A stretch of DNA of 64,000 nt from a virus. The first letter of the stretch is position 1, and each line of letters starts with the position of its first letter. This document shows positions 21,096-50,900 of the stretch, in pieces. The DNA lies in IMG/VR virus record IMGVR_UViG_3300042922_000850, positions 64,001-128,000 of that record; one strand, written 5' to 3'. The notes beneath the pieces were generated by a model, which did no database searches, had not been told where the DNA came from, and saw nothing but the letters and a program-made list of their open reading frames with translations. Both the position numbers and the translations under genes were made by a program.

Positions 21096-21186
21096 AATGG
21101 CAAAACCCTTCATCTTTGACCTAGCATTTTAACTTTACCTCTTTTCCAGTATAAGAGATAAAACAAAACACAGGAGGAATAAAATT

Positions 21187-21381
21187 ATGAGACAAATAAG
21201 TAAAAAGACAATGGCAAAGTTAGACATTGTATCCGGAGTAATAGAAGTAACAGTGGGAGTTTTAGGAATGGTTACATTGGGAAAATCACCAAAGAGTTTG
21301 ATTGCAGCAGCATCATTGGTATTTGGAGCAGCAAATGTATGCTTTGGCATAGACGAAGCAGTGGAAGCAGCACAGGAATAA
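21187..21381 (+). CDS. small hydrophobic hairpin protein
   Basis: Cassette gene, AGGAGG RBS. Confidence 0.7.
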   Translation: MRQISKKTMAKLDIVSGVIEVTVGVLGMVTLGKSPKSLIAAASLVFGAANVCFGIDEAVEAAQE

Positions 21382-21394
21382 ACACAAGGATAGA

Positions 21395-21424
21395 GAAACA
21401 AAAGGACATATGTCCTTTTGTTTC
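21395..21424. terminator. 30-bp perfect palindrome
   Basis: GAAACAAAAGGACAT|ATGTCCTTTTGTTTC. Confidence 0.7.
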
Positions 21425-21431
21425 CGTTTCA

Positions 21432-21507
21432 ACCACGCCCACCACGTTGTTAATGATATCCGATGCCCAGCTTTATTCCTGCTGTTTTTCTAGTATAAGA
21501 GATAAAA
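21432..21507 (+). repeat. composite upstream element, copy 1
   Basis: ACCACGCCCACCACG, degenerate GGACA-N5-TGTCC, TTTATTC, class I motif. Confidence 0.75.
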
Positions 21508-21527
21508 CAAAACACAGGAGGAATAAA

Positions 21528-21752
21528 ATGAAAACAATAAAAACAATAATCGCATTTTTAAAGATAATAGGAAAGGTATTATTTAGTACAAGAGAAGAAA
21601 AAGAAAATATGAAATCAGTATTGAAAGCATATAACGATGCAGTACAGTCATATATGAAAGAAAATAATGTGAGTAGGGAAGTAGCAGAAGATGAAATGAA
21701 TGCAAGACTTCAGCGAGAAGCAATGAAAATGGAAAACAAGACAAGAGCGTAA
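21528..21752 (+). CDS. cassette protein, family A
   Basis: Start reassigned to ATG 21528; similar to 25802 and 27349. Confidence 0.7.
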   Translation: MKTIKTIIAFLKIIGKVLFSTREEKENMKSVLKAYNDAVQSYMKENNVSREVAEDEMNARLQREAMKMENKTRA

Positions 21753-21772
21753 GGCTCTTGTCTTTCGCTTCA

Positions 21773-21848
21773 ACCACGCCCACCACGTTGTCAAGGACAT
21801 CAGGTGTCCAGTTTTATTCTCGTCGTTTTTCTAGTATAAGAGATAAAA
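21773..21848 (+). repeat. composite upstream element, copy 2
   Basis: ACCACGCCCACCACG, GGACATCAGGTGTCC, class I motif. Confidence 0.8.
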
Positions 21849-21870
21849 TAAACAAATGGAGGAATTAAAA

Positions 21871-22164
21871 ATGGGTATGAGTATGGCAGGAAGAATTGTT
21901 GTATTAACAGAAAACGGAGCATTTGCAGTAGAAGAAGTAAAAGTTAAGGTTATAGAAGAATCAAGACAGTTTATAGTAAAGGAATGGGATGATACATTAA
22001 GTAAAGTAACAGCGTATGTAAGAGAAGATGGTTATGTAGATATGATTTACGAAGACGGGGTATGTCACACAGTAAATAAGGTATATTTTGAATCAATAGC
22101 ATTTGAAGGTGAGCTTGAAAATCAGAAGCAGATGGCAATAGAAGCAAAATTAATCAAAGCATAA
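21871..22164 (+). CDS. cassette hypothetical protein
   Basis: GGAGG RBS precedes ATG 21871. Confidence 0.7.
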   Translation: MGMSMAGRIVVLTENGAFAVEEVKVKVIEESRQFIVKEWDDTLSKVTAYVREDGYVDMIYEDGVCHTVNKVYFESIAFEGELENQKQMAIEAKLIKA

Positions 22165-22170
22165 ACAAAA

Positions 22171-22186
22171 GGGAGCGAAAGCTCCC
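22171..22186 (+). terminator. GGGAGC-GAAA-GCTCCC hairpin; identical copies at 23548 and 23857
   Basis: Follows stop codons in all three places. Confidence 0.75.
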
Positions 22187-22316
22187 TGTGTCTTTTTCCT
22201 TTACCCCGTCCACCTCGTGCACGAGGTTCTCTCGGACATGCCGTGTCCGTTTTATTCTCCATGTTTTTTTCCTATAAGAAAGAAAATAAAACAGAAAGAT
22301 AAAGAGGTAAGAGATT

Positions 22317-22535
22317 ATGAAAAAAGTAATGAAGGCAACAGTAATAGGATTAGGAATATTTATGATGGGAATGTATAGTTATGAAAGAGGAGTAAAGGAT
22401 ACAAAGGAAATATATGAAAAGGTATTAAGTAATCGAAACGAAGAATTAAATCAATTATTCAAAGAGGTATTGGATGAAAAGAATGAGAAAATTAGAGCAT
22501 TGAAAGCAGAAATATATAGGATGTCAGAGGCGTAA
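22317..22535 (+). CDS. N-anchored coiled-coil cassette protein
   Basis: Hydrophobic N-terminus. Confidence 0.7.
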   Translation: MKKVMKATVIGLGIFMMGMYSYERGVKDTKEIYEKVLSNRNEELNQLFKEVLDEKNEKIRALKAEIYRMSEA

Positions 22536-22664
22536 GCCTCGCATCTTTTTCTTCCAATGCTCTAATTTTCTCCGCTCACCATGCTGACCGGACATCCCAT
22601 GTCCACTTTATTCTCCCTGTTTTTCTCCTATAAGAAAGAAAACAATATTAGGAGGTAACACAAA

Positions 22665-22952
22665 ATGAAATTAGAAGAGTTCGGAATACAGGCAGTATTG
22701 GAAGTAAAAAGAATTAGAGTAACACCATGTTATGAAAGTAAATGGGAAATTATGTTAAAGTTAGATGACAGTGAAAAGGTATATGGGGAAAATATAAAAA
22801 ATCACGGGTATGTAGAAATATATAAAGGAAAGGCAATCGTAGGGCTAACGAGGTTAGACACTGAAACACAGGAAAAAATGGAAGATTTGGTACATATGTG
22901 TAAAACGGTAAAAGAAGTATGTGATTTATATTTTGAGGTTTATTATGACTAA
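22665..22952 (+). CDS. cassette hypothetical protein
   Basis: AGGAGG RBS. Confidence 0.7.
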   Translation: MKLEEFGIQAVLEVKRIRVTPCYESKWEIMLKLDDSEKVYGENIKNHGYVEIYKGKAIVGLTRLDTETQEKMEDLVHMCKTVKEVCDLYFEVYYD

Positions 22953-23031
22953 GGGCATTTGCCCTTAGTTTTATTTTCCCTATTTTCCACGTATAAGTAA
23001 GAAAATAAACAAAAGAAAGAAGGAATAAATT

Positions 23032-23541
23032 ATGAAATCAAGCATTAAGATAGTAGGAGCAACAACGGTAACAGCAACAGTGGCATTAGTAATTGGAATG
23101 ATGGCAAAGAGAAAAGTGAATCATCGAAGAAAAGAGAAAGAAGGATATTTATTAAAAGAATATTATGAGCACGGATATAGTGAAGGGCATAAGGACGGAT
23201 ACGAAGAGGGACAGCAGAAAATGGAGATTAAACCGGAGAAAACGGGAAGAAGTTATAGTTATGAGAAGTTCATGGACACTTTAAGAAGAAGTGAAGCAGG
23301 TGAGTTTGATTACACCGGATGGAAGATGGTAACATCGGAACAGTCAGGATTTGACAGAAATTATTACAACGGAAGAGTTGTATGGGGATATGATGGAGCA
23401 CCAGATGATGAGTTTTACTTCACAGTAGTAACAGAAGATGGGCACAACGCAAGGATAGTAAGCGTTATGAGAGCAGATGGAACAGAAATCAATTATGATG
23501 AATCATTTATTGTACAGTATTTTATACTGAGAACGTTTTAA
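23032..23541 (+). CDS. N-anchored protein with GxxxG repeats
   Basis: HGYSEGHKDGYEEG. Confidence 0.7.
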   Translation: MKSSIKIVGATTVTATVALVIGMMAKRKVNHRRKEKEGYLLKEYYEHGYSEGHKDGYEEGQQKMEIKPEKTGRSYSYEKFMDTLRRSEAGEFDYTGWKMVTSEQSGFDRNYYNGRVVWGYDGAPDDEFYFTVVTEDGHNARIVSVMRADGTEINYDESFIVQYFILRTF

Positions 23542-23624
23542 ACAAGAGGGAGCGAAAGCTCCCTTAAACTTTTCTCTTTTTCTCCTATAAGTAAGAAAAC
23601 AACGAAAGAGAGGATTTAAAGATT

Positions 23625-23846
23625 ATGGACAACGATAAAGTAATTAAAGAATGTAACATTGAAAGACAAACAGGATTTGCGGCAGAAAACAAAGTAAACG
23701 TAGTTTACGAGGACGGAATGGCAGAGAAGATATTAAATTATTACCCGGATGAATTATCATTCAGCGAAGAAGAATTTATAGGATTAACGAAGCAGCAGGC
23801 GAAGGATTTATTCCATAAAAAAGACATAGCATATTTACAAAGCTAA
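23625..23846 (+). CDS. cassette hypothetical protein
   Basis: YYPDELSF...DIAYLQS. Confidence 0.7.
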   Translation: MDNDKVIKECNIERQTGFAAENKVNVVYEDGMAEKILNYYPDELSFSEEEFIGLTKQQAKDLFHKKDIAYLQS

Positions 23847-23891
23847 ATAAATAAAAGGGAGCGAAAGCTCCCTGGACTTTTTCTTTTTGTA

Positions 23892-24809
23892 TCAGGCTTT
23901 TCTTGGAGATTTGTCAAAGAATATCGATCGCTTCGTATACGGGGTGACTTTGTGAACTCCGATATAATCTTGATTGGGATTTATAATTCTCTCTATTCTG
24001 TTCTTTTCTCCAAGTATCTCGGATTCTTTAATTGCTGCGGCAACATCATTATTTAACAACGGATAATGAGTCTCTTTATATCGCTGTAATTTATCATAAA
24101 TCTCCGGAGACCGCTTTGATCCTTGTTCTAAGTGTGTTAACTGTCTCTTTTTTGTTAAGTCCCCAGAAACTCCGTTATAACGAGAGATCCCACCCGACAT
24201 ATCAGTTATAAGATGGTTCCTTTTTGGGAATGCCAAGTTTTTCGGAAGGACATCTGATACTTTAATATTTTTTGGCAAATACTTACGAGAATGCTCATCT
24301 GTAATGCGGCGAATTTCTTTAATCTTCTTTTGATTTTTTGGTGTATCTCCAATTTCCTCAATCTCACCTACTATTCTATCAACAGTTCTCATCTCTTGTA
24401 GCTCTTTAATTTTACGCTCACCCTCATTAATAGGATGAGTGTGTAGATTTGAATAAGTGGAGTTATTGTTAATACGTGAATCCACTCTATGCTCTCTGAC
24501 CGGACCCGTTTTAATAGCCTTTACTTCACCTTTGTCTATCAGGGCAGCCAATTCTGTTTCACTTGGGAGTTTACGAGAAGTACTTTTTATTTTTTGATAT
24601 GCATTATTAGAAACATCTCCAAGCCCCATTTTTGCCTCAGCAAGCTCTCTTCCCGCTAACGCATTACCCTTTCTATCTCTTAGTTTGCGAAGTGCCCACT
24701 TCCAATTACCATCTGGGACTAAGCGAACCTTTTTTGCAATCTCATGGGCTTTACTTGCGGTTAAGGCCTCTTTATATATTTCGTTCTCATAATGAACCAC
24801 TTTATCCAC
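23892..24809 (-). CDS. basic protein with MDKVVHYENEIYKEA leader and HTHP motif; putative virion-internal protein
   Basis: GTG start 10 nt after AAGGAG; class II -10 at 24838-24847. Confidence 0.65.
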   Translation of the reverse strand: MDKVVHYENEIYKEALTASKAHEIAKKVRLVPDGNWKWALRKLRDRKGNALAGRELAEAKMGLGDVSNNAYQKIKSTSRKLPSETELAALIDKGEVKAIKTGPVREHRVDSRINNNSTYSNLHTHPINEGERKIKELQEMRTVDRIVGEIEEIGDTPKNQKKIKEIRRITDEHSRKYLPKNIKVSDVLPKNLAFPKRNHLITDMSGGISRYNGVSGDLTKKRQLTHLEQGSKRSPEIYDKLQRYKETHYPLLNNDVAAAIKESEILGEKNRIERIINPNQDYIGVHKVTPYTKRSIFFDKSPRKA

Positions 24810-24953
24810 GCCAACCACGCTCCTTCCTTTTGTAGTAATTATATCACAAACCTGTCGACCACGCACACCACGTTTTTCTGGTATAAGTAATAAAAGGAGG
24901 ATGTTAATGCCTTCTTTTGTAATCGACACAATAACAGAAAGGAGGGGCAGTTA

Positions 24954-25109
24954 ATGAATACCTCAATCAAAATAACTATTAAAGTACTTGGTTTTGTACC
25001 ATCGGTGTTTTTGAATTTAGCTTTGATATCTGCGGGTACAGGGGTAGCGCTAAGTGCTGGGAAAAACTTGGTAACGATATGTTCTAATGTAATGAAGACA
25101 GAGTTATAG
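24954..25109 (+). CDS. small hydrophobic cassette protein (51 aa, not in ORF track)
   Basis: AAAGGAGG RBS. Confidence 0.6.
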   Translation: MNTSIKITIKVLGFVPSVFLNLALISAGTGVALSAGKNLVTICSNVMKTEL

Positions 25110-25215
25110 CAGAGATATAGCAAGGAAGACAGAGTGGCAGTGCCACTCTGTCTTCACCATTATACCGCTTTTATCTGGTATAAGTAATAAAATAAAGAGA
25201 ATGGAGAATTTGATC

Positions 25216-25413
25216 ATGGAAGAGAAATTATACACAGAACAAGAAGTAATCGAGCATATGATAAGAGCAGTTAAGACTTATAAGGATGGGATAACCCTTG
25301 GCAGAAAAGAGGGAGCAGTAATAGGTATAGTAATTGGGGTGGTATTAGTAGCATCAATAGAAATTGGGAATGCGATTAGCCGAATGAAAGCTAAGAAGGA
25401 GGCAGAGGCGTAA
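25216..25413 (+). CDS. small single-TM cassette protein
   Basis: GAVIGIVIGVVLVAS. Confidence 0.65.
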   Translation: MEEKLYTEQEVIEHMIRAVKTYKDGITLGRKEGAVIGIVIGVVLVASIEIGNAISRMKAKKEAEA

Positions 25414-25485
25414 GCCTCTACTCTTTATTTTCTACTATTTTCTGGTACAAGAGATAAAATAAAGAGAATAGAGGAGAAATTAACT

Positions 25486-25632
25486 ATGGGAGCAAAAATC
25501 AGGATGGCAATAAGAACAATTGAAGCAATACAAGCAATGGGAGCAGTAATAGTAGTTGCGGCAGCAGCATATGGTGTAGGTTATAAACAAGGACACGAAG
25601 ACGGGCGGAGACAAGGCGTTAGATATAGATAA
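25486..25632 (+). CDS. small TM protein with GxxxG repeats (48 aa, not in ORF track)
   Basis: GAGGAG RBS; GYKQGHEDGRRQG. Confidence 0.6.
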   Translation: MGAKIRMAIRTIEAIQAMGAVIVVAAAAYGVGYKQGHEDGRRQGVRYR

Positions 25633-25801
25633 ATAGATGATTAACAGGGTGAGGAGCAATAGGCTCCTCCTGTTATTTGTCTGACCACGCCCACCACGTG
25701 CGCGATGTTTACAGCATGGTTATAAACTGCTATAAATTCTTGTATAAGTAATAAAAGAAGAACAACAATGTTCTTCCAAATATATTTTATGGAGGGTTTT
25801 C

Positions 25802-26050
25802 ATGAAAAAAACCGCATTTTATTTTAATGTAATACGTATAAGGTTATTTGGCACAAAAGAAGAGAGAGAAGACGAAAGAAGAGTGAGAAATCTTTATAAT
25901 AATATGATAATCGGATATATGGAAAAAGAAGGGCTGAAGAGCAAGCGAAAGGCAGAACGGCAATTAATTAACAGTCTAGAATTTTCTGCTCAAGAGGCAA
26001 GGAAAAAACGCGAAGAACAACGAAAATTGTGGAGGAAAGGTAATGTTTAA
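25802..26050 (+). CDS. cassette protein, family A
   Basis: LFGTKEE...YN...YM...AE. Confidence 0.7.
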   Translation: MKKTAFYFNVIRIRLFGTKEEREDERRVRNLYNNMIIGYMEKEGLKSKRKAERQLINSLEFSAQEARKKREEQRKLWRKGNV

Positions 26051-26234
26051 AGTAAAGGTATTTCCAGTCCCGTTTCGCAATATCGGGCTCGGATGTTATA
26101 TTGACACCCTCCATATAGGTCTTATCCCATTTATTAATCTTATTACAATGGAAGACACCCCATCCAGGCACCGAATTGATATTGGTTGGCTGTGCTTTTC
26201 TATCTTAATCCTTACCGGAAAGCGCAATACCTAA
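26043..26234 (+). CDS. cassette protein, family B (WLCF)
   Basis: Similar to the two repeats in 32893. Confidence 0.65.
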   Translation: MFKVKVFPVPFRNIGLGCYIDTLHIGLIPFINLITMEDTPSRHRIDIGWLCFSILILTGKRNT

Positions 26235-26247
26235 CCACGCCCACCAC

Positions 26248-26356
26248 GTGTGTCACACTACCTAGTAAATATATAAGGGGAGTGTGACACACAGTATGTT
26301 GTCAACCGCATATGATTGCAAACCAAGCTTGCAATCATATGCGGTTGACAACATAC
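26248..26356. repeat. two adjacent inverted repeats (12-bp and 28-bp arms)
   Basis: GTGTGTCACACT/AGTGTGACACAC; GTATGTTGTCAACCGCATATGATTGCAA with its perfect reverse complement. Confidence 0.9.
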
Positions 26357-26426
26357 ACTATACCGGTCTTTAATTCACGCCCTTTTCTGGTACAAGAAAT
26401 AAAACAAACAATAGGAGGAAGATAAA

Positions 26427-26624
26427 ATGAAAATCGGAACAGTAGTAGTAATCAGTACATTAACAGCAGCATTAGGATTTACAATAGGCATATTTGTAGG
26501 CGCAGTAGCAGGTGCAATAGCAGTATCAGAAATAATAACAGATAAGGAAGATGAAGACAGCAACGAAAGTGAAAGCAGTAATGAAAGTGAAAGCAGTAAA
26601 GACGTCTTCTCATTCCTTGTATAA
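26427..26624 (+). CDS. small TM protein with acidic tail
   Basis: Hydrophobic N-terminal half. Confidence 0.7.
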   Translation: MKIGTVVVISTLTAALGFTIGIFVGAVAGAIAVSEIITDKEDEDSNESESSNESESSKDVFSFLV

Positions 26625-26655
26625 GTAATAAAATAAAGAGAAAGGAGAGAGTATT

Positions 26656-26856
26656 ATGCAAAGCAGTATTACAATAGACGGCGGAGTTAATTTAGAAGCA
26701 CAAGAGATTAAAATAAGTAATATAGAAGGAAAGGCTGTCATTGAAATTGGAGCAATAAAAACAATTTTAGACGAAGGGGAATCTATTACAATCAAGTGTC
26801 AACAGGGGTTGCAATCATTAGAAATAGGGGATTTTGTCGTAGCATCAAAACAGTGA
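26656..26856 (+). CDS. cassette hypothetical protein
   Basis: AAAGGAG RBS. Confidence 0.65.
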   Translation: MQSSITIDGGVNLEAQEIKISNIEGKAVIEIGAIKTILDEGESITIKCQQGLQSLEIGDFVVASKQ

Positions 26857-26932
26857 TAGTGAAGAGGGGTTAAACCCCCTCTTCTTTCCTCGTATAAGTA
26901 ATAAAATAAAGAACGCAGAGGAGGAAGAATAT

Positions 26933-27136
26933 ATGGATTTAACAGCAGTGATAGCAAGAGTAAGAGCAGATGGTCACACTATAAGAGAGACAGAAAGTAC
27001 ATATCAGTTTTATGCAAATGACGAGTATATTAAATCGTTAGAAGTAAGAGGATTATTAGTGAAGGGAGATTGTCATAAGATAAGGAATAGCACATTTAGG
27101 CTATACAAAGAAAAATGGTACAAAAGGGCAAAGTAA
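26933..27136 (+). CDS. cassette hypothetical protein
   Basis: GAGGAGG RBS. Confidence 0.65.
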   Translation: MDLTAVIARVRADGHTIRETESTYQFYANDEYIKSLEVRGLLVKGDCHKIRNSTFRLYKEKWYKRAK

Positions 27137-27217
27137 TTGCCCTTTTGTCTCTTCTCTCATAAAATCCTTTATCTTATTGTATAAGTAATAAAATAAGAGA
27201 AAGGAGGTAATTTATAT

Positions 27218-27346
27218 ATGAAAGATAAGATAAAGGATTTAAGTACGGCAATGATGATAGTCATTACAGTAGGAGCAGCAGTTATAGCTGGAGCAATTGT
27301 ATTAGTTATATCTCGAATTAGAGATGCGATTAAGGGGAGACTTTAA
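27218..27346 (+). CDS. small single-TM protein (42 aa, not in ORF track)
   Basis: AAAGGAGGT RBS. Confidence 0.6.
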   Translation: MKDKIKDLSTAMMIVITVGAAVIAGAIVLVISRIRDAIKGRL

Positions 27347-27348
27347 TT

Positions 27349-27549
27349 ATGATGGTATTGATCGGGAGGATATTTAAAAACGTATTTGGCAAGAAAATGC
27401 AAGTAGATGATGTACAAGTTTTAGTTGAGGACCATGATGAAATAGTCTATCAATATATGAAGACTAATAAAGTAGATAGAGCAGCCGCAGAGAAGGAAGT
27501 AAACAAAATGATATTGGACTTAAAGGTAGTGAGAGAAAAGAGAGGTTAA
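27349..27549 (+). CDS. cassette protein, family A
   Basis: YMKTNKVDRAAAEKEVN. Confidence 0.65.
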   Translation: MMVLIGRIFKNVFGKKMQVDDVQVLVEDHDEIVYQYMKTNKVDRAAAEKEVNKMILDLKVVREKRG

Positions 27550-27628
27550 AACCTCTCTTTCACTATCATCTGGTATAAGTTATAAAACAAGAGAAGTCTT
27601 GTTATTTTATTTTTAAGGAGGTAAGGTT

Positions 27629-27847
27629 ATGTCCAACCCAATTAGGGACTGTGCAAATGCCCATAAGCGCACGGGAGAAATGTTAAATGATTTTCTTTAT
27701 GAAGATGGAAAACCATTATTGAAAGGAGGTAAACCGGGTGTGCGTAAGGACCATACAAAAGAAGAATTAGAACAGATGCTAGAAGGGATATTAATAAGTT
27801 CTTTTGAAAATTATAATGATATTGCGAATGAACTTGGCTGGGAATGA
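27629..27847 (+). CDS. hypothetical protein
   Basis: AAGGAGGT RBS. Confidence 0.65.
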   Translation: MSNPIRDCANAHKRTGEMLNDFLYEDGKPLLKGGKPGVRKDHTKEELEQMLEGILISSFENYNDIANELGWE

Positions 27848-27868
27848 TTTATATTAAGGAGGAGAAAG

Positions 27869-28201
27869 ATGAGCAACCAGAAGAAAAGATATTTTATCAT
27901 CACAATAATAGCACTTGTAGCTGTTATTGCAGGAGGCACTATTTTTAATAGCCGACTATTAGGTTCTATCGGATTAACAGCTTATGTAATAAATGCCACA
28001 ATAGACCTTGTACTTGCTTTTAAAAGAGATGAATTAATTTCACTAAGAGACCTGAGAATTTACAAAGAGTTTTTTGTGGACAATAAAGGCGTTTACATCT
28101 CGGCGGTTCTAATGTTTATAATAACATTACTGACCCCTGTAGTAATGTATGCTTTCTTTATAATCATCTGGATAAATACGATCAAAGAGTTTATAGGTTA
28201 A
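27869..28201 (+). CDS. multi-TM membrane protein
   Basis: About three hydrophobic helices. Confidence 0.7.
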   Translation: MSNQKKRYFIITIIALVAVIAGGTIFNSRLLGSIGLTAYVINATIDLVLAFKRDELISLRDLRIYKEFFVDNKGVYISAVLMFIITLLTPVVMYAFFIIIWINTIKEFIG

Positions 28202-28213
28202 GGAGGAAAGATT

Positions 28214-29104
28214 ATGGATTTATATTCAGTTGGACTAATGATTACTAAGCGGTGTAATTTCCATTGCGGGCATTGTATGTTTTCATGCAACGCAAAGGGT
28301 GACAATATGTCTGATGAGGTAATTAAAGCTGCAGGCTATTTTATTAGAGAAAATAACGTTGACCATGTAGCCATCTACGGCGGAGAACCATTTTTAAACA
28401 TCCCGCTCTTTGATAAAGTGCTTGACGAAGTTTATGATAGGGATATAGGATTTTTTGTGTCTACAAATGGGAGTTTTATGGGATCCAAGGCAAAAAGAGA
28501 GTATGTGTATAAACTGTTGTGTCGGATGAAAAACAATAGCTCTGAATTTACGGGCATCAGGGTATCAAACACCGTTTTTCATAATGCGTGTCGAACAGAA
28601 AAACAAAAGGCGTCTATCAAACAATTAAAATGGTGGATTAGTGATCCATATTCTTGGGTCGAAGATAATTATGACAGCTACGAAGAATGCTATGACGAAA
28701 ACCCTTTTGACTTTCCAAGGGGAAGGGGGTCATTATACATTGACCCGGAGAACGCGAGTGAAAAAATGAATCCTAGTGGGCGAGCTTTAAAACATGCTGA
28801 TATTCATGATAAAGCATGTCATTGTTCAATGACATGCAATACAAATGAGATTTATGACGAGTTTGAAATGAATATCAGTACGAACGGGGATATTTCAGTA
28901 TGTTGTTATTGCGACGGATGCGTTGTAGGAAATATACTAGAGGAAAATATTTGTCCAAGCGTAATATTCGAACGTACAAAGAAGCTGAATGAGTTTTTTA
29001 AAGAGAAGTATGATGTTCATCAAAAGACGAAGATGGTAGATATCTGCCAAATATGTAAGAAATACCGGATTGGACCAGATGGCATAAGAAAATATAGGAG
29101 GTAG
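28214..29104 (+). CDS. radical SAM protein with SPASM/twitch-like Cys-rich C-terminus
   Basis: CNFHCGHC, GGEPF, STNG; C-terminal NGDISVCC and CQIC. Confidence 0.9.
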   Translation: MDLYSVGLMITKRCNFHCGHCMFSCNAKGDNMSDEVIKAAGYFIRENNVDHVAIYGGEPFLNIPLFDKVLDEVYDRDIGFFVSTNGSFMGSKAKREYVYKLLCRMKNNSSEFTGIRVSNTVFHNACRTEKQKASIKQLKWWISDPYSWVEDNYDSYEECYDENPFDFPRGRGSLYIDPENASEKMNPSGRALKHADIHDKACHCSMTCNTNEIYDEFEMNISTNGDISVCCYCDGCVVGNILEENICPSVIFERTKKLNEFFKEKYDVHQKTKMVDICQICKKYRIGPDGIRKYRR

Positions 29105-29110
29105 TACATA

Positions 29111-29383
29111 GTGGCGATATACGAAATAACGATCACAAGAACAATTGAAGAGAAGCAAAAAATTTATGTTGAAAGCAGCACTGGGGTAATTCATAAGGTC
29201 CTCAGTAAACAAAATAATATCGACCAGAGTTTGGAGAGTTATGTTAAGAACGTTGGGAGAGAAATTGAAATATTAGATAAAGAGAAACCTAAGGTAAGAA
29301 AGCTCACAATGGGTTCAATATCACATTGGTGCAAACGAATTGGTCCAGGACAATATATTTGGAATGATGCACCGGGGAGGTAA
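29111..29383 (+). CDS. hypothetical protein
   Basis: AGGAGG RBS, GTG start. Confidence 0.6.
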   Translation: MAIYEITITRTIEEKQKIYVESSTGVIHKVLSKQNNIDQSLESYVKNVGREIEILDKEKPKVRKLTMGSISHWCKRIGPGQYIWNDAPGR

Positions 29384-29384
29384 T

Positions 29385-29597
29385 ATGACAAGAAAAGAAA
29401 TGTTTGTTAATTGGGCGGTAACTACTTCGGGTGTCTATTTTATAAATGTTATGATGTTTTCATTTACGAATGATATGATGGCCTTCAGAGCGATCAATCC
29501 CACCGCTTATACAGCTGTAGGCATAGGACAAATAATTGCCGATGTTATTTTAATAATAGCTCTTTCTCGTTATCTTTTTAAACGAAAGAGTAAATAA
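29385..29597 (+). CDS. small two-TM protein
   Basis: Start reassigned after GGAGG. Confidence 0.6.
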   Translation: MTRKEMFVNWAVTTSGVYFINVMMFSFTNDMMAFRAINPTAYTAVGIGQIIADVILIIALSRYLFKRKSK

Positions 29598-29639
29598 AAA
29601 TTTTAGGAATAAAAATATTCTGGTATAAGAAAGAAAAGG

Positions 29640-29711
29640 AAAGCAGTAGCTCAGATGGGAGAGCACCAGTATTAATACTGAGGGTGGCAGGTTCGATACC
29701 TGTCTGCTTTT
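29640..29711 (+). tRNA. tRNA-like RNA or pseudo-tRNA; anticodon undetermined (6-nt loop), no encoded CCA
   Basis: Acceptor AAAGCAG/CTGCTTT; D arm GCTC-AGATGGGA-GAGC; T arm GCAGG-TTCGATA-CCTGT; anticodon arm 16 nt. Confidence 0.8.
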
Positions 29712-29783
29712 GTTTTCATTGTTTTTAAAAAACAATGTATTTCTAGTATAAGGAATAAAACAAAACAAAGGAGGTTCATAAGT

Positions 29784-29996
29784 ATGAACGAGGAAGTATA
29801 CGAGACAACAGAAGAGGTAACAGAGGCAGTAGCAGGTATGGATGACAATCGAATAAAGATTGCAGTAGTAGCAGTAGCGGGGGTTGTATTATTAGCAGGA
29901 GCAGGTTTTACATGGCTGAAGTTAAGAAAGAAAAAGAAATTGGCAGTATCAGATGCAGACATCGATTTAGATGAAGTTGCAGCAGACGAACAATAA
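29784..29996 (+). CDS. small single-TM protein
   Basis: TM helix followed by LRKKKK. Confidence 0.7.
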   Translation: MNEEVYETTEEVTEAVAGMDDNRIKIAVVAVAGVVLLAGAGFTWLKLRKKKKLAVSDADIDLDEVAADEQ

Positions 29997-30093
29997 GGTT
30001 TAAGAACCGGGGGCATATGCCCTTGGTTCTTTTCTGCTAATTGAGCGGATTTTATTGTATAAGAAATAAAACAAATGAAAGGAGAATTAAAGT

Positions 30094-30279
30094 ATGGACG
30101 CAACAACAGATAAGAAAGTAGGAGAGGTATTAGTACAGACAATTGTATTAACTTCAAAAGAAGGAACATTAAAAGGATTTATCGCAGGATGTATTGTAAC
30201 AGGGATAGCAATAGGTGGTATTTATATTGCAAACAAACATGGAATAGCAATTAAAAGCTTCATCAAAGAAAAGATTTAA
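30094..30279 (+). CDS. small single-TM protein
   Basis: GFIAGCIVTGIAIGG. Confidence 0.65.
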   Translation: MDATTDKKVGEVLVQTIVLTSKEGTLKGFIAGCIVTGIAIGGIYIANKHGIAIKSFIKEKI

Positions 30280-30375
30280 ATATATAGGAGGCGCTTGCCT
30301 CCTATATTCTTTCTTTTGATGTTGAATTTTCTTGTATAAGAAATAAAAGAATAATAGATAATGGAGGATACGAGA

Positions 30376-30552
30376 ATGAGAAAGTTGATAAGAAGAAAAA
30401 TCAAAGAGACAATGGTAAGCGTAGGATTTAAGTTAGTAACTACAGTTATGGCACTTGTAATGACGGCAAAAGAGTTGTGGAATATGAGAGAAACCAGGAA
30501 AGACATTAATAAAATGAAAAGAATGTGGAGCGAATGGGCAAACGAAAAATAA
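30376..30552 (+). CDS. small basic cassette protein
   Basis: GGAGG RBS before ATG 30376. Confidence 0.6.
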   Translation: MRKLIRRKIKETMVSVGFKLVTTVMALVMTAKELWNMRETRKDINKMKRMWSEWANEK

Positions 30553-30581
30553 AGAAAAGAGGAGGCGTTGCCTCCTCTAAG

Positions 30582-31547
30582 TCATTTTTTTATTCCAAAT
30601 AAGCTACTAACATAATCGGATACATTCTTGCTAGCGACTATAGGGGCTCTTTTTTTGAAATTTTCTTCTGCTACTTGCTTTTCCATTTGGTCAGCAAGTT
30701 TTTTATCATAAACACCGCTATCACCATATTTTAAACCATAAGTTTCATAAGTTTTACCCTTCTGAAACTTCTTAGCGCCAGGATACATTTTTAAATATTT
30801 AGGGTCTGCAGTTTCTCCTGAAGTGGCCCGAAGTGCTTTATAGAAATTTCTTGTGTGCAAAGGAGCAACTGCAACATTAGCAGATTCCCTTGCAATTACT
30901 TTGGGAGATACGTGAGCACTATTGCCGATTTGCTCTGGCCGAAAATCATGTTTAATCATGCCATTCTTCTTGTTTTTTAATTTCTTCTCAACCTGTTGAG
31001 TAGCTCTGTTTTCATCTACTTCATGTCTAAGACTAATCGCCTTATTCCATTTATCAAAATCTTTTTTTACCGGTTTACTCATGCTAAAAACATGTTCTTT
31101 CTGATAAACATTATCTGCAAACTCTTGGTCAATTTTTGATTTTGATGGTGCATAAGCTACCCTGCTCTTCGACACAGATCCGGCACCGTCTTTTACTCCG
31201 GATATACTCCGAGAAGCGGCTTCAAAATTTACCTTCAGCGCTTTTTCAGCAGGATTAATACCCTTGCTTTTAAATTTTTGTTCGGCTACATATTCTGCAT
31301 TAGGCTTATGGATATCCTTAAACAGTGCTTTTCCATAAGTTAGTGGATTGGATGTTGTCTTAACCTTATAATCTTTAGCGATTGCTTTCGTTCCCTTTTC
31401 CAATCCCTTTAGTTCCCTGTTGTAATTTAGGATATTCTTTTTTACTAACTCTCTACGAGCAAGATCAGATAAAGTACCGAGTTCTCGTTTCCATGCTCTA
31501 CTGGCTTCTTTATAAATTAGTTCTTCATATGCTGCGATTTTATCCAT
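30582..31547 (-). CDS. basic protein with MDKIAAYEELIYKEA leader; putative virion-internal protein
   Basis: AAGGAG RBS; class II -10 at 31581-31590; LRHEVDE motif. Confidence 0.7.
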   Translation of the reverse strand: MDKIAAYEELIYKEASRAWKRELGTLSDLARRELVKKNILNYNRELKGLEKGTKAIAKDYKVKTTSNPLTYGKALFKDIHKPNAEYVAEQKFKSKGINPAEKALKVNFEAASRSISGVKDGAGSVSKSRVAYAPSKSKIDQEFADNVYQKEHVFSMSKPVKKDFDKWNKAISLRHEVDENRATQQVEKKLKNKKNGMIKHDFRPEQIGNSAHVSPKVIARESANVAVAPLHTRNFYKALRATSGETADPKYLKMYPGAKKFQKGKTYETYGLKYGDSGVYDKKLADQMEKQVAEENFKKRAPIVASKNVSDYVSSLFGIKK

Positions 31548-31689
31548 CTATACAAGTCTCCTTTGCTTGGGTTTAGAATAATTATATCACGACCTCGCCC
31601 ACAACGCACTTCACTGCATTTCACCGTACCCTTTATTCCATGCTCTTTTCTAGTATAAGAAATAAAACAATACATAGGAGGAAAATAGC

Positions 31690-32004
31690 ATGACAGAGGT
31701 AATGAAAGAAGCAATGAAAGAACTTGAAGTTTTAAGAAAGCAAGAAGAAAGAGTGAAGACAATAATTTTTAATGAACTGGCTGATAAAGATGGGCCAATG
31801 TTAGAAGAAGGGTTTACAATTCACGCAAAGAAATTTAGCAGTGTAGAAGTGGCAAAGCTTTTAGGAGTACACGTACATACATTACGCAGATGGATACAAT
31901 CTGGTAAATTAGTGGCAGAAACAGGAATGGGACCGCATGGAATACAAATACATGAATGGGCGTTAAAAGAGTTTATTAGAAAAAACAGAGAGGTTTTTAT
32001 TTAA
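31690..32004 (+). CDS. excisionase/MerR-like HTH protein
   Basis: FSSVEVAKLLGVHVHTLRRWIQSGKL. Confidence 0.8.
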   Translation: MTEVMKEAMKELEVLRKQEERVKTIIFNELADKDGPMLEEGFTIHAKKFSSVEVAKLLGVHVHTLRRWIQSGKLVAETGMGPHGIQIHEWALKEFIRKNREVFI

Positions 32005-32108
32005 AGAGGCAACCGCCTCTTTAAAATTTGTTGTTTTATTGTATAAGAAATAAAACAACAAATAATAGTAACAGAAAGTGGGGAATAATAAATAGGAGGA
32101 TACGTATT

Positions 32109-32216
32109 ATGGGAGTAATTAAAAGCGTAAACAAGCAAACGATTGTATTGGTAGTAATTGGATCAGCAATAGGATTTATTACAACTTTGGCAGCGGAAGC
32201 ATCCAGAAGAAAATAG
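32109..32216 (+). CDS. 35-aa single-TM peptide
   Basis: AGGAGG RBS. Confidence 0.55.
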   Translation: MGVIKSVNKQTIVLVVIGSAIGFITTLAAEASRRK

Positions 32217-32346
32217 GATAAGAGGAATTAGGGGAGAGTCAGCTCCCCTAAACCTTCGTCTTTTTGTCAAAAACTTATATTATAAAACCAGACAGGTTTC
32301 TAGTATAAGAAAGAAAAGAAGTATATAAGAAAGAAGGAGAGATAGT

Positions 32347-32697
32347 ATGAAAATGCAGAATGTAATTTTAGGAACAGTTGTAGTAGGGATAGCAATTATT
32401 GTAACAACAGCGGTAATAACGACAAAAGTTATAAAAAAGAAGGCAGGTGATAAGCAAACACCAGAACATCTGGAGGAGAGTGGTGAAGTATCTTTTTATA
32501 AAGAAAAGTTTAATATCGATACAGAGGCGGCAGAAGCAATCGCATCGACTATGGATATCGTCATGGCAGAATTAGAGGAAGCGGATAGACCGGCATCGAG
32601 AGAGAATTTAATCGAAGCAATACAAGATGAATTTAATATAGGGGTTAACCCGGAAGACATTGTGGATGCATACATAGCATATTGCAACATGGATTAG
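32347..32697 (+). CDS. N-anchored acidic protein
   Basis: N-terminal TM helix. Confidence 0.7.
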   Translation: MKMQNVILGTVVVGIAIIVTTAVITTKVIKKKAGDKQTPEHLEESGEVSFYKEKFNIDTEAAEAIASTMDIVMAELEEADRPASRENLIEAIQDEFNIGVNPEDIVDAYIAYCNMD

Positions 32698-32892
32698 AGG
32701 ATGAGGGACATTAAGTGTCCCTCAAATTTTCTTCATCTTATCGTATAAGTAATAAAAGAAAAAGGTGAATAGAAATAAATATATAAGATAGGCGCCTATT
32801 CACACCGCAGTTTGACAAAATGCGGTATATAATGTGCAGACAGCAATAGCAGACAAATATTTGTCTGACTTTTATTTTTAGGGGGTAATTTT

Positions 32893-33288
32893 ATGAAAAA
32901 AATGAAGACATTTATTCAAAATGAAAGGCTTAATTTGGGTGTAGGTATAGATACCGGTGAATGGCAGTTAACACCATCCTTTAGTATCTATTTTGAGAGA
33001 GATTGGTACAATAGCCGGCTAATCCAGTTTTCATGGCTCTGCTTCTTTATCGCCGGTGTAGTGTATAGTAAAGAGCATTTGCATGCACAGGCGATAAAAG
33101 ATATTGAAAAAACCAACTACCTTTTTACTAACAAAAAGGTAGTTGTAATGGCTAAGATTGCCACATATACATGGGAAGTCTTGCCGGTAATTGGATATGC
33201 CCAATTACCGGATAATCCCGAACACGGAACTATATTTGAAGTAACATGGTTATGTTTCACGTTCGGTGCATCTTTTTATAAACAATAA
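32893..33288 (+). CDS. family B protein with two WLCF repeats
   Basis: FSWLCF and VTWLCF. Confidence 0.7.
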   Translation: MKKMKTFIQNERLNLGVGIDTGEWQLTPSFSIYFERDWYNSRLIQFSWLCFFIAGVVYSKEHLHAQAIKDIEKTNYLFTNKKVVVMAKIATYTWEVLPVIGYAQLPDNPEHGTIFEVTWLCFTFGASFYKQ

Positions 33289-33413
33289 AGAGATAAAAGA
33301 GCGGGGGATTTTGCCCTAACTGGTTCACTTTTGAGGTACAAAATCAAAAATAAATATTTTAAAAGGTTAAATTAAAATTCAGGGCATTAATAAGTAGTGC
33401 AGATTGGAGAAAA

Positions 33414-33572
33414 ATGAACGTTGAAAGAATGGGAAAAAACTTTGAATTATGTATCAGAGACGAATCCAATCTTATAGTTGCATGGCAAGCGGGGATGTCA
33501 GAAGAAGATATTAATGATATGTTAAAAAGACATTTTGGATGGCGAAGAAGTCATGCATATGTAGAGAGCTAA
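33414..33572 (+). CDS. small hypothetical protein (52 aa, not in ORF track)
   Basis: GGAG RBS. Confidence 0.5.
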   Translation: MNVERMGKNFELCIRDESNLIVAWQAGMSEEDINDMLKRHFGWRRSHAYVES

Positions 33573-33667
33573 ACTGAAAAGTAGCGGTGGGTGAAAATAT
33601 ATTCTTCGCTCCTGAGTTTTTCCTTTTTCTGGTATAAGAAACAAAAGGATTAAAGGAGGATAATATT

Positions 33668-33811
33668 ATGAACGAAGCAAGTATGGGGTTAGACCAAGAA
33701 CAACGAATGAAAGAAGTTGAACGAAGAGTTCAGAACGAAATAAGTCACGGAGAGATTTTAACTGAGAAGGAATTTAACAGCATTATAGAGGATGTAATGA
33801 AAACAAATTGA
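33668..33811 (+). CDS. small cassette protein (47 aa, not in ORF track)
   Basis: AAAGGAGG RBS after class I motif. Confidence 0.6.
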   Translation: MNEASMGLDQEQRMKEVERRVQNEISHGEILTEKEFNSIIEDVMKTN

Positions 33812-33964
33812 GAGAGGAGCTTATGCTCCTTTTTAATTTCTTCTTTTTTTTGGTATAAGAAAGAAAATAAGAGAATGTAATGTAATTCTCTTAAGTTTGT
33901 TTTCATTTGTAACATAGGAAGTAAGACAAAAGAAAATATTAAATAATTCAAGGAGGATTCACAA

Positions 33965-34492
33965 ATGCAGATTTTAACAAAGGGAACAATGATTGCAACG
34001 GTTATCGTGTCAGGGGCAACAGCAGTAACATCTATAGTAGTATCCGCAAGAGAGAAAAAGAAATCAGGTAAACTTCTAAGTGAAATGTGTGATGCATATG
34101 AGGAGTTGTCAAAGAAAAATGCCGATATGAGCAAAACTATTGAGGCGAACAACGCTTTTATGTCTAGGGCGGAAAACGAACTTACAGAAAGAGCTAAGAA
34201 CATCCGTGAACTATCCAGAGATAAAGTTTCTCTCGAAGGAAAACTTACTATTGAGAAAAACATATCGAAAACGTCATTTAACAATGGATTTTCAGCAGGT
34301 GACGAAGCAGGATATGCTCGTGGTTATGAAACTGGATTTAAAGAAGGCAAGAAAGCCGGAGTAAAAGAAAGTAAGAAGATTGATAAGGAAACTACCGATA
34401 GCACAGCTGCTCCTGGTAAAGAACGCAAAAAGAGAGAAAGTAAGAGCACAGAGAGTAAGAATGTGGCTGGCGAAGAAACGTTGGGCAAATAA
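33965..34492 (+). CDS. N-anchored coiled-coil protein with GxxxG repeats
   Basis: GFSAGDEAGYARGYETGFKEGKKAG. Confidence 0.7.
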   Translation: MQILTKGTMIATVIVSGATAVTSIVVSAREKKKSGKLLSEMCDAYEELSKKNADMSKTIEANNAFMSRAENELTERAKNIRELSRDKVSLEGKLTIEKNISKTSFNNGFSAGDEAGYARGYETGFKEGKKAGVKESKKIDKETTDSTAAPGKERKKRESKSTESKNVAGEETLGK

Positions 34493-34503
34493 GGATAATG
34501 GGC

Positions 34504-34531
34504 TATCAGGAGGCTACATAGCCTCCTGATA
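34504..34531 (+). terminator. hairpin
   Basis: TATCAGGAGGCTA-CA-TAGCCTCCTGATA followed by TTTT. Confidence 0.7.
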
Positions 34532-34698
34532 TTTTGCTATGTCAATTTAGCAAAATGCTTTTATTTTTTACTTCTCGTATAAGAAAGAAAAGGGGGATAT
34601 TTTCTTCTTTTCTTTCTTGCTATCATGATTTTACAATGATAAAATAGAAAGAAAAATGCGTTACAAAGGGTAAAAATATTAATATAGGAGGCAAAATT

Positions 34699-47943: not shown

Positions 47944-50900
47944 ATGCAAGAAGAAAAAGATCGCGATAAGTTTACTCATTTGCACGTACATACCCAAGGT
48001 TCGTTAGCAGATTCTATGTTAAAAGAAATTGAACTTGCAAAAGCAATTAAAGCAAAAGGGATGCACGCAGTTGCGATTACAGATCACGGTAATATGTTCA
48101 ATGTAATAAAGTTCTATAAAGCTTGTAAGCGTGAGGGTATTAAGCCAATAATCGGTATGGAAGCTTATGTCGCCCCGAGATCTAATTTATTAAAACAACA
48201 TAAAATAGATGATGCAAATTACCATTTGGTTCTACTCGCAGAAAACAATGATGGTTATCAGAATTTAATGAGTATTGCTTCAGATTCATCAATTAACGGT
48301 ATGTACTATAGGCCTAGAACAGACAAGTCGAAACTAAGAGAATGGAGCAAAGGCATAATCGCTTTATCTGCTTGTTTAGGTGGAGAGGTTCAGCAATATA
48401 TTCTCGAAAAAGATTACAATACGGCAAAGAAAGTTGCTTTAGAATATCAAGATATTTTTGGAGTTGGTAATTTCTTTTTAGAATTGCAAGACCATGGCCT
48501 GCCTGAACAAAAGATGGTAAATGAAGCTTTGCTTAAAATGAGCAAGGAGACGAATATACCTCTGGTTTGCACAAATGACTGCCATTATCTAACCAATGGC
48601 GATTATGAGCCACACGACGTTCTCATGGCTATCCAAGCAAAGACCACAGTAGATAGCGAAAAACGAAAAAAGTATGGATCGGATCAATTCTATGTAAAAA
48701 CGCAAGAAGAAATGGAACAACTATTCAGTTATATCCCAGAGGCGCTTGAAAATACAGTAAAGATTGCAGAGCGATGTAATGTGGTAATTGATTTTCACTC
48801 TAATAAATTACCGCCATTCCGGTTACCGGCTAACTTTACTGGGACTAATTTCGAATATCTTATGATGCTTACGTATAAAGGTTTGAAGAAATTTTATGGT
48901 GAAATAACGCCAGAGATTAAAGAAAAAGCTGAATACGAAGCAAATGTTGTAAATGGTATGGGTTATGTAAATTACTTCTTAATTGTGTGGGACTTTTTCC
49001 GGTTCTGCATTGAGGGAACTGATGAACCAGGCCAACCAAGTCCTCCAGGATGGATACCAATTTTAACAGGTCCAGGCAGAGGAAGCGGAGCAGGAAGTAT
49101 TCTGTTATATGCCTTAGAAATTACTAAAATAGATCCAATAAGATATGACCTTTTGTTCGAGAGATTTTTAGACCCATCTCGTGTTTCCATGCCAGATGTG
49201 GATAGCGATTTCGAATATGAGAGAAGACAGGAGGTTATTGATTATGTAATTCGAAAATACGGAAGACAATCTGTGTGCCAGATTATAACGTACGGCACAT
49301 TAGCAGCAAGGGCCGCTATTCGAGCAGTTGGTAAAGCGCTTGATTTGCCGTATAGTATTTATGATGAAACGGCAAAAATGATACCGATTGAACCGGGGAT
49401 TACAATTAAAGATGCTCTGGAACAAAATCCAGATTTATTTCGTAAGTACGATAATGATGAAATCATACATCGTCTGCTTAATATTTCTATGAGACTAGAA
49501 GGACTACCGACTTATACAAGTACTCATGCTGCAGGTGTGTTAATCACGGATGATCGTGGAGTTACCGCACACGTTCCGGTTTGGGCAAATGAGGGCGCGA
49601 TTGTATCTCAATATGATATGAATATACTTGAAGAGTTAGGGCTTCTGAAAATGGACTTCCTTGGGCTTCGTACACTAGGAGTAATTCGAGAAGCTATGGA
49701 CATGATTAAGAAAAACCATGGGGTTACAGTTGACCTTGATCAGGTTTATCAATGTCTGGATATGGCTCCGCTACGATTACTTGAAGAAGGGAAGACAGAT
49801 GGTATTTTCCAGTTAGAAGGTGGCGGTCTAACTGAGTTTGTAAGAGAGTTAAAGCCAAAGAGCATGGAAGAGTGGATTGCTGTAATTTCTCTCTATCGCC
49901 CAGGACCAATGGATTCAATTCCACAATATATGGCCAATCGAAGAAACCCGGACCTTATCCAATATCCGTTCGAGGTATTACGAGAAGTGCTTGGGGAAAC
50001 CTTTGGAGTCCTCTGCTATCAAGAGCAATGTATGAAATCTGTTATTATTGTATCAGGATATGATAAATCCGACTCTGATGGCTTTCGTAAGGTTATTTCG
50101 AAGAAGAAGAAAGACCTAATCCCATTACATCGAAAATGGTTTATCGACGGAAGAAACCAAGTGGATTTGGACGAATACGGAAAGCAAAAGGACTATGGGC
50201 ACGTTATACCAGGAGGCATTACAAAAGGGCAAGCAAGAGAAGCTTTAGAGAGGTTCTTCGATAAGATGGAGGACTTTGGTAAATATGCTTTTAACAAATC
50301 CCATGCCGCAGCGTATGCCGTTGTTGGATATGTAACTGCGTGGCTGAAGTTCTATTATCCAGTAGAATTTATGGCGGCATTAATGAATTCTTTAGCAGGA
50401 GCTACAAAGCAAACAAAAACCGCTCGTTATATTAACCACTGCAGAAACAGTCTTGGTATTGATATTGTTGCACCAGATATTAACACGAGTGAGGAAAGAT
50501 TTGTTGCCACAGAAGATGGAAAAATCATCTTTACATTAAACGCAAAAAATGTATCAGCGACTAGCTTGCAAATCATTAAAGCGCAAAGAGCCACATCTAA
50601 ATTTAGAGACTTTGATGACTTTATACGCAGAACTCTCGACGGAGTGGGAAAACAAGATATTACTGCGTTCGCTTCTATAGGAGCATTTGATAGCCTTGGT
50701 AGCATAAGTTCACAAATCACTGCAGGAGCCGCCGATATTGCTGACAAGATGTCCAAAACCAAACAAGCAAGAGCCAGAGCAAGAAATTCGGGGAGAGCAT
50801 TTGAAATTGAAAAATGGTTAACCCTCGATGTAGCTATACCTTATGGTATAAAAGAGTTTCCGAACAGAGTTCGTTGGGCTTTGGAAAAAGAATATCTGGG

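Follow-up and report, generated by a model that had tools for sequence, protein, structure and literature searches.

A tRNA-shaped RNA gene with a sealed anticodon arm in a large phage genome: a candidate non-decoding tRNA mimic

One gene in the stretch of phage DNA analysed here (the window; 64,000 nucleotides, bases 64001-128000 of a virus record that is complete at 166,758 bp and carries direct terminal repeats) encodes an RNA that is best classed as a tRNA-derived mimic or pseudo-tRNA and not a tRNA: it passes as a member of the Rfam tRNA family but lacks both the loop features of a decoder and the identity elements of the lysine and asparagine tRNAs. All the elements on which the L-shape of a tRNA depends are retained in the RNA (acceptor stem, both the D and the T arm, U8, A14, G18, G19, T-loop and the core triples), but it cannot decode in the normal manner, since the length and the pairing of its anticodon loop exclude this. 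Selection for a non-decoding tRNA mimic is the reading favoured here, tentatively and at somewhat less than an even chance. That the specific job of the RNA is to counter a tRNA-targeting defence is a narrower proposition and is considered unlikely. The features of the gene, its surroundings and a comparable unit in a second phage are collected in Table 1.

Table 1. Positions of the tRNA-like gene, its parts and neighbouring or related loci (window coordinates unless a contig is named).
Feature	Position	Strand	Description
Radical SAM/SPASM protein gene	28214-29104	+	0.5 kb upstream of the tRNA-like gene; SPASM signal weak
Copy of the repeated promoter-like motif	29617..29637	+	T-rich stretch, GTATAAG at 29623-29629, then A-rich AAGAAAA
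A-rich leader strand	29633-29639		can pair with the trailer
tRNA-like RNA gene	29640..29711	+	72 nt including discriminator U at 29711; Rfam RF00005
Acceptor stem	29640-29646 x 29704-29710		7/7 Watson-Crick pairs
D arm	29649-29664		4-bp stem; 8-nt loop with A14, G18, G19 and A21; followed by A26
Anticodon arm	29666..29681	+	16 nt; C27/A43 mismatch, four pairs and 6-nt loop AUUAAU (from the sequence)
Palindrome	29667-29680		14 nt, perfect
Variable loop	29682-29686		5 nt
T arm, 3' acceptor strand and U-rich trailer	29686..29716	+	resembles an intrinsic terminator (terminator-like score)
T arm	29687-29703		5-bp stem including one G-U pair; loop UUCGAUA
Trailer GUUUUC	29712-29717		can pair with the leader
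A+U-rich hairpin	29717..29737	+	9 bp; separates the tRNA-like gene from the promoter copy that follows (fold of 29636-29745)
GTATAAG of the next promoter copy	29746		follows the tRNA-like gene
DnaE-type polymerase III alpha gene	47944-51501	+	full length; PHP, polymerase, finger, HhH and OB domains
MazE-like/PemK-like gene pair of L006	L006:1527-2283		about 170 nt from the tRNA cluster
tRNA cluster of L006	L006:2454-3423	-	tRNA-Asn, tRNA-Ser and tRNA-Tyr, all normal, and two odd-looped tRNA-like genes
Odd-looped gene of L006	L006:2696-2785		23-nt loop with internal hairpin
Odd-looped gene of L006	L006:3340-3423		17-nt loop
tRNA-like unit of L006	L006:4935-5009		GTATAAG, 10 nt, A1-U72, A3-U70, U73, trailer GUUUUC

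Structure of the tRNA-like RNA

The match to the Rfam tRNA family reaches 41.7 bits, with 29 as the gathering threshold and an E-value of 2e-5 for the window. Its alignment spans model positions 1-71, which amounts to full-length coverage, and it is the single tRNA-type gene that Rfam recognizes in the whole genome. All arms outside the anticodon region have the dimensions expected of a tRNA, namely a 7-bp acceptor stem followed by U8 and A9, a 4-bp D stem whose loop places A14, G18, G19 and A21, and a 5-bp T stem closed by a loop of the UUCRANY type. The contacts of the tRNA core (8-14, 18-55, 19-56, 54-58, 26-44, 10-25-45, 13-22-46 and 9-23-12) can be formed, the sole odd one being the 15-48 pair, which is an unusual G/G. 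The minimum-energy fold of the RNA is the cloverleaf, with a z-score of -2.1. The discriminator U is followed directly by GUUUUC, so that CCA is not encoded. The initial annotation had listed a 7-bp acceptor stem, U8-A9, a D arm, a 5-nt variable loop, a T arm and the absence of CCA, and on each of these points it agrees with the sequence and with the Rfam alignment.

In the anticodon loop the Rfam alignment shows a one-base deletion. The loop sequence AUUAAU is self-complementary, so that the anticodon arm closes into a hairpin, and the perfect palindrome in the arm arises from the same self-complementarity. Folded by itself, the arm forms 5 bp around UUAA (-3.7 kcal/mol, z -8.4). Whereas a decoder carries a 7-nt loop in which U33 and purine 37 flank a 3-nt anticodon, the loop here is 6 nt long and complementary to itself. 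The 16-nt arm, the perfect palindrome and the loop of 4 or 6 nt had been described previously and are reproduced by the sequence, the Rfam alignment and the fold; the accompanying description of the RNA as non-decoding is supported by loop length and pairing. If the U run or the A run were one base longer, the loop would formally be a canonical one of 7 nt, and its anticodon would be UUA or UAA. The palindrome was also considered as a repeated operator and rejected, as the genome contains one perfect copy and near-matches occur at the level of the controls.

ARAGORN, which the initial annotation had proposed as a check, does call a tRNA at this position, but as tRNA-Ile(AAU) and through a forced register. 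The call needs an acceptor stem of 8 bp that starts from G-1, and the 7-nt loop obtained in this way leaves an anticodon stem in which two of the five positions are mismatched and one further pair is a G-U wobble. The assignment as tRNA-Ile(AAU) is a forced fit and is wrong.

Cassette and genome setting

The motif in front of the gene is a promoter-like element of about 21 nt that consists of a T-rich stretch, GTATAAG, one base (N) and AAtAAAA, with no conserved -35 element. It occurs in 18 copies between 24 and 36 kb of the window. Across the genome about 45 of the 57 plus-strand GTA[TC]AAG sites resemble it, and they are densest at window positions 21149-34591. Conservation runs past the -10-like element into the transcribed leader, and a motif of this shape suggests a phage-specific polymerase or sigma factor. 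Small genes of early type, every one headed by the motif, form a 13-kb array that includes the tRNA-like gene; the copy in front of this gene ends 2 nt before the tRNA body, which starts exactly 10 nt after GTATAAG. The earlier placement of the RNA directly behind a class I motif, in a cassette slot of its own, is confirmed by this GTATAAG.

Downstream of the body, the trailer can pair with the A-rich leader, as found in a fold of 110 nt and by hand, and the acceptor helix, containing one mismatch, then reaches about 12-13 bp. Other cassettes rely on simple GC hairpins. To judge from its sequence, the tRNA-shaped RNA gene is a self-contained cassette with its own copy of the promoter motif and a terminator-like end, and the layout would give a primary transcript of about 80 nt.

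The neighbours of the gene encode small membrane-like proteins or proteins without assignment. Several unrelated large phages also carry the gene of the upstream radical SAM/SPASM protein in an early region, and in relatives it is found near recognized anti-defence genes, namely Apyc1 (contig L098), Tad8 (L095) and a T7 gp5.9-like gene (L006). A functional link between this gene and the tRNA-like RNA is not supported, because in relatives the gene is retained without the RNA. Among 12 small early ORFs at 21-35 kb of the window, one shows a weak Pfam match to T4_Rnl2_C, the C-terminal domain of T4 RNA ligase 2 (E 7e-4), which loses significance on correction for multiple testing; the genome yielded no catalytic domain of an RNA ligase.

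Several roles that would tie a tRNA-like gene to the rest of the genome were rejected. Outside the small-gene array the standard code gives a coding coverage of 0.8-0.96; it already accounts for the genome, so that no suppressor or special decoder is called for, and stop-codon recoding with a suppressor tRNA was dismissed. A phage tRNA repair or maturation set was dismissed because no CCA-adding enzyme, RtcB or RNA ligase was found in the phage genome. Searches of the same genome found no PemK or RelA/SpoT-type toxin partner and no TROVE/Ro60 gene, and an ARAGORN tmRNA search of the whole genome returned only the tRNA call. An attachment-site copy of a tRNA was rejected since a search directed at tyrosine integrases found none in the genome, where direct terminal repeats and a phage-encoded DnaE-type polymerase are present. 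The phage DnaE is about 44% identical to bacterial-looking sequences.

Ancestry and relatives of the unit

Among GenBank phage sequences, those nearest to the tRNA body are the tRNA-Asn of Bacillus Bastille-like phages (83% over 57 nt) and phage tRNA-Lys. The CCAG/CUGA stem, the C27/A43 mismatch and the T arm are held in common with the tRNA-Asn(GUU) of Bacillus phage Janet, and of the 32 matches to the pattern of D arm, stem and variable loop in bacterial genomes, 29 are tRNA-Lys(UUU). Compared with canonical class I elongator tRNAs, in particular those for Lys and Asn, the window RNA has the same full cloverleaf and tertiary core, but it differs in its self-complementary 6-nt loop and in having neither an anticodon nor CCA. 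It also differs in its U73, which replaces A73 or G73, in the pairs A1-U72, A2-U71 and A3-U70, and in the G15/G48 combination. The loop region lies at least three events (substitutions and indels) from the Lys/Asn tRNAs and keeps the UUAAU block. A hand count against the nearest tRNA-Asn gives about three events in 9 nt of the loop region compared with seven differences in 49 nt.

Recognition as a Lys or Asn tRNA depends on the anticodon UUU or GUU and on discriminator A73 (Lys) or G73 (Asn). The window RNA has no such anticodon, its discriminator is U, and the similarity is one of the body alone. To our knowledge, the combination of U73, A1-U72 and A3-U70 matches no anticodon-independent synthetase identity set either. 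As these residues fit neither the Lys/Asn rules nor the anticodon-independent sets, the RNA is probably uncharged.

The phage lineage is very thinly sampled. A 94.9-kb JGI contig (L008) and a Logan contig (L095) encode many early proteins that are 45-85% identical to those of the window, and both have the promoter motif. In L008, the nearest relative that retains synteny, the corresponding position has no such cassette, and no tRNA-like gene is present in the stretches of L008 and L095 available for search.

A more distant phage, represented by a 160-kb JGI contig (L006), carries 13 copies of the same promoter motif on one strand, a radical SAM protein 40% identical to that of the window and a second tRNA-like unit (Table 1), which is identical in three assemblies. 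Leader-trailer pairing is common to this unit and to the window unit. The anticodon arm of the L006 unit is 18 nt long and forms either 5 bp with an 8-nt loop, AGAACGGU, or 6 bp with a 6-nt loop; it has no U33, and ARAGORN reads a four-base anticodon in it. The unit directly precedes a ribosome-binding site and an ORF, in the manner of a 5' leader, and its body is nearest to Phe, Arg and Ile tRNAs and less like Lys/Asn tRNAs. The two units have their design and their ends in common but not clearly their tRNA ancestor, and common descent is uncertain. As to conservation of the short loop in relatives, a check put forward in the initial annotation, L006 also departs from a 7-nt loop, with 8 nt and not 6, and L008 and L095 show no gene in the stretches searched. 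The non-standard loop predicted for L006 favours a loop that is non-decoding by design over a random slip. Among about 129 unique ARAGORN-predicted tRNAs in the other loci fetched, a non-standard anticodon was called only in L006, a background figure that is rough because ARAGORN misses long loop inserts.

Elsewhere in L006, on the minus strand, normal tRNA genes are clustered with two tRNA-like genes whose loops are odd (17 and 23 nt), and a MazE-like/PemK-like gene pair lies close to this cluster.

Wider searches did not extend the group. A blastn search with 1 kb around the gene against GenBank phages gave no further member, nor did exact and degenerate DNA patterns in IMG/VR, whose 16 and 3 matches are ordinary tRNAs or coding DNA. 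Protein-anchored searches with the radical SAM protein, a highly conserved early gene, DnaE and a neighbour gene of the L006 unit led only to L006, L008, L095 and a few more distant contigs, and no diverged copy of the window unit was found that would show purifying selection. The best DnaE matches, four human-faecal 'Bacteriophage sp.' records (L145-L148; MT835501.1, MT835604.1, MT835961.1 and MT835570.1), were set aside as bacterial-looking; they contain a THF riboswitch or a TwoAYGGAY RNA at a GC content of 41-72%, with no tRNA and no copy of the promoter motif. Lactococcus phage 1706 (L109; EU081845.1 31103-31155) contains a tRNA-like remnant that lacks an annotation and is missed by ARAGORN. 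Its D and T arms are good, but its anticodon arm has only 12 nt, and it was rejected as a member because its acceptor stem is imperfect.

The pattern of T arm and trailer, used in one metagenome scan, returned 68 matches, all unrelated, many of which represent a recurrent element next to cold-shock-type genes. This conserved element (L030, L033, L037, L054, L059 and about 15 more metagenome loci) is about 75 nt long and terminates with a hairpin resembling a T arm and with a U tract; in the two or three loci examined downstream, the next gene is of the cold-shock-protein type.

Possible roles of the RNA

Phage tRNAs that evade tRNA-cleaving defences by changes in the anticodon arm have been described in mycobacteriophages (PMC10264068); in phage T5, tRNA-Lys, tRNA-Thr and tRNA-Asn act against PARIS (PMC11464382, PMC12409363) and tRNA-Tyr acts against retron Eco7 (PMC11555353). 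The window RNA is likewise of a Lys/Asn-like target type with its changes concentrated in the anticodon arm. However, the defence-evading tRNAs keep a 7-nt loop, decode and replace the cleaved host tRNA, whereas the window RNA could only bind or act as a decoy; loop length and pairing bar it from decoding and place it outside that group. The tRNA-Other of Bacillus cereus, a pseudo-tRNA that does not work in translation (PMC3399842), resembles it in being tRNA-derived, in its low-GC setting and in being kept outside translation, but that gene is chromosomal and flanks a genomic island, and the comparison concerns origin and setting, not sequence. The effects reported for tRNA-Other on the cell wall and on antibiotic resistance (PMC3399842) have no counterpart in the phage unit.

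Bacterial Y RNAs of the YrlA type, some of them phage-encoded, contain a tRNA-like module bound by Ro60 (PMC4201824) and are, like the window RNA, non-decoding mimics of the tRNA elbow, but the two ends of the window RNA, 5' and 3', pair with each other in a normal acceptor stem. A YrlA/Ro60 pair was rejected, as tRNA is the sole family above the Rfam gathering scores in the window and TROVE is absent from the genome. Frameshift-suppressor tRNAs with 8-nt loops depart from a loop length of seven, as does the L006 unit with its 8 nt; the window loop differs from theirs in being 6 nt long and self-paired, with neither U33 nor purine 37 in register. A limited literature search turned up no account of tRNA look-alikes from phages in which the anticodon loop is sealed or shortened.

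If the RNA is a selected mimic, the stand-alone, early-transcribed gene would yield a tRNA-shaped small RNA that does not decode. Pairing of the A-rich leader with the U-rich tail would lengthen the acceptor helix of the transcript, and the RNA would occupy a protein that recognizes the tRNA body. The favoured target would be a host tRNA-cleaving defence enzyme aimed at Lys/Asn-type tRNAs, with a host tRNA-processing or tRNA-sensing factor as the alternative. The mimic is favoured because the body is fully preserved, because the gene has its own promoter and terminator, because the acceptor end is not that of a Lys/Asn tRNA and because another unit built in the same way likewise has a loop other than 7 nt. 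Roles as a decoy for T-boxes or for the ribosomal A site fit poorly, as there is no anticodon to read, and a synthetase decoy fits poorly given the lack of a match, among the anticodon-independent identity sets known to us, to the residues of the acceptor end.

A more specific version can be framed around PARIS. Its nuclease AriB targets Lys, Thr and Asn tRNAs and reads a UAAU motif beside the cut site together with distal D-loop contacts (PMC12409363). The window loop keeps UUAAU, but in paired form, and the connection to AriB and PARIS is a lead, not a result. Other host defences cut tRNA bodies or tails. On this version, the phages that use this promoter family would make early mimics with a sealed anticodon as pseudo-substrate inhibitors of nucleases resembling AriB of PARIS or PrrC, a proposal that is improbable as it stands. 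Such an inhibitor would combine a commonly targeted tRNA body with an uncleavable, closed anticodon hairpin that displays UUAAU, and leader-trailer pairing would close the acceptor helix. It would constitute an RNA-based anti-defence mechanism distinct from the supply of replacement tRNAs. The documented phage tRNA counter-defences all supply cut-resistant tRNAs that still decode, and a whole tRNA body in which decoding has been given up would suggest a second strategy, that of tying up a tRNA-binding enzyme or another tRNA-recognizing factor. As a compact unit complete with promoter, 72-nt RNA and terminator, it lends itself to direct tests in laboratory strains.

Some observations count against a mimic of any kind. 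A decoy must compete with a very large host tRNA pool, and such units occur in only two phage lineages, in bodies that resemble different tRNA types. L008 is without the cassette where synteny would place it, and the available stretches of L008 and L095 hold no such gene. Nor does the phage encode a CCA-adding enzyme, RNA ligase, RtcB, Ro60, PemK or RelA/SpoT-type partner that would hint at a pathway.

The same absence from the closest relatives, in the stretches fetched, indicates that the gene is dispensable, as would be expected if it were a recently disabled phage tRNA of the Lys/Asn or a similar type that lost a loop base, acquired a few substitutions and is still transcribed, functionless and not yet deleted. 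This explanation, though rather unlikely, is the main rival: no diverged homologue demonstrates constraint, a single added base in the U or A run restores a formal 7-nt loop, and the excess of change in the loop over that in the rest of the body is modest. Set against it are the integrity of all four stems and of the bases that make tertiary contacts, and an acceptor stem, with three A-U pairs at its top and U73, that is unlike that of working Lys/Asn tRNAs and puts the RNA more than one lesion away from a decoder. The parallel unit of L006, stable in three assemblies, also lacks a 7-nt loop, and large lytic phages tend to shed dead DNA. Of the tRNA mimic proposed in the initial annotation, then, the promoter-led, tRNA-shaped and non-decoding gene stands, while simple decay is still a live rival. 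Should the gene be merely a broken tRNA, the practical lesson would be that the tRNA-Ile(AAU) call of automatic finders is wrong.

The terminator-like score of the T arm and U tract, the pairing of leader with trailer and the position of the L006 unit immediately in front of a ribosome-binding site and ORF would also suit a cis-acting element built from a tRNA, serving as a terminator or insulator between cassettes, as a site of RNase P/Z processing or as a 5' stabilizing structure for neighbouring messages. Such a role is doubtful, as the unit and the next gene each have their own promoter, which leaves nothing to punctuate, simple GC hairpins serve the other cassettes, and a full tRNA tertiary core exceeds the needs of a terminator.

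An unconventional but working decoder, in which the closing U-A pair opens to give an 8-nt loop for four-base or shifted reading at a programmed frameshift, is very improbable. The window arm could in principle open in this way, and the L006 unit has an 8-nt loop with a four-base anticodon according to ARAGORN. Yet neither loop has U33 or purine 37 correctly placed, the opened pair would reduce the stem to three Watson-Crick pairs plus one mismatch, the identity elements correspond to those of no synthetase, and the genome reads well under the standard code.

The unit is reproduced in a second assembly, made independently. A 54-kb Logan contig from run SRR35179700 (L112) is 100% identical to window positions 28284-31496 (3,213 bp), a region that includes the whole unit, so that the same 6-nt loop is found there and in the IMG/VR record; this is at minimum an agreement of two assemblers, since the Logan run and the IMG/VR record may come from the same sample. 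That an ordinary tRNA gene has lost one base to an error of assembly, as the initial annotation allowed, or of sequencing is largely ruled out by this agreement and is scarcely credible, even though the missing base could fall in a short U or A run, because the restored anticodons would be odd too (UUA, a reader of stop codons, or UAA in a short-arm body with U73). Identity is 99.9% for a third contig, obtained from JGI sample 3300042923, which begins just downstream of the tRNA-like RNA.
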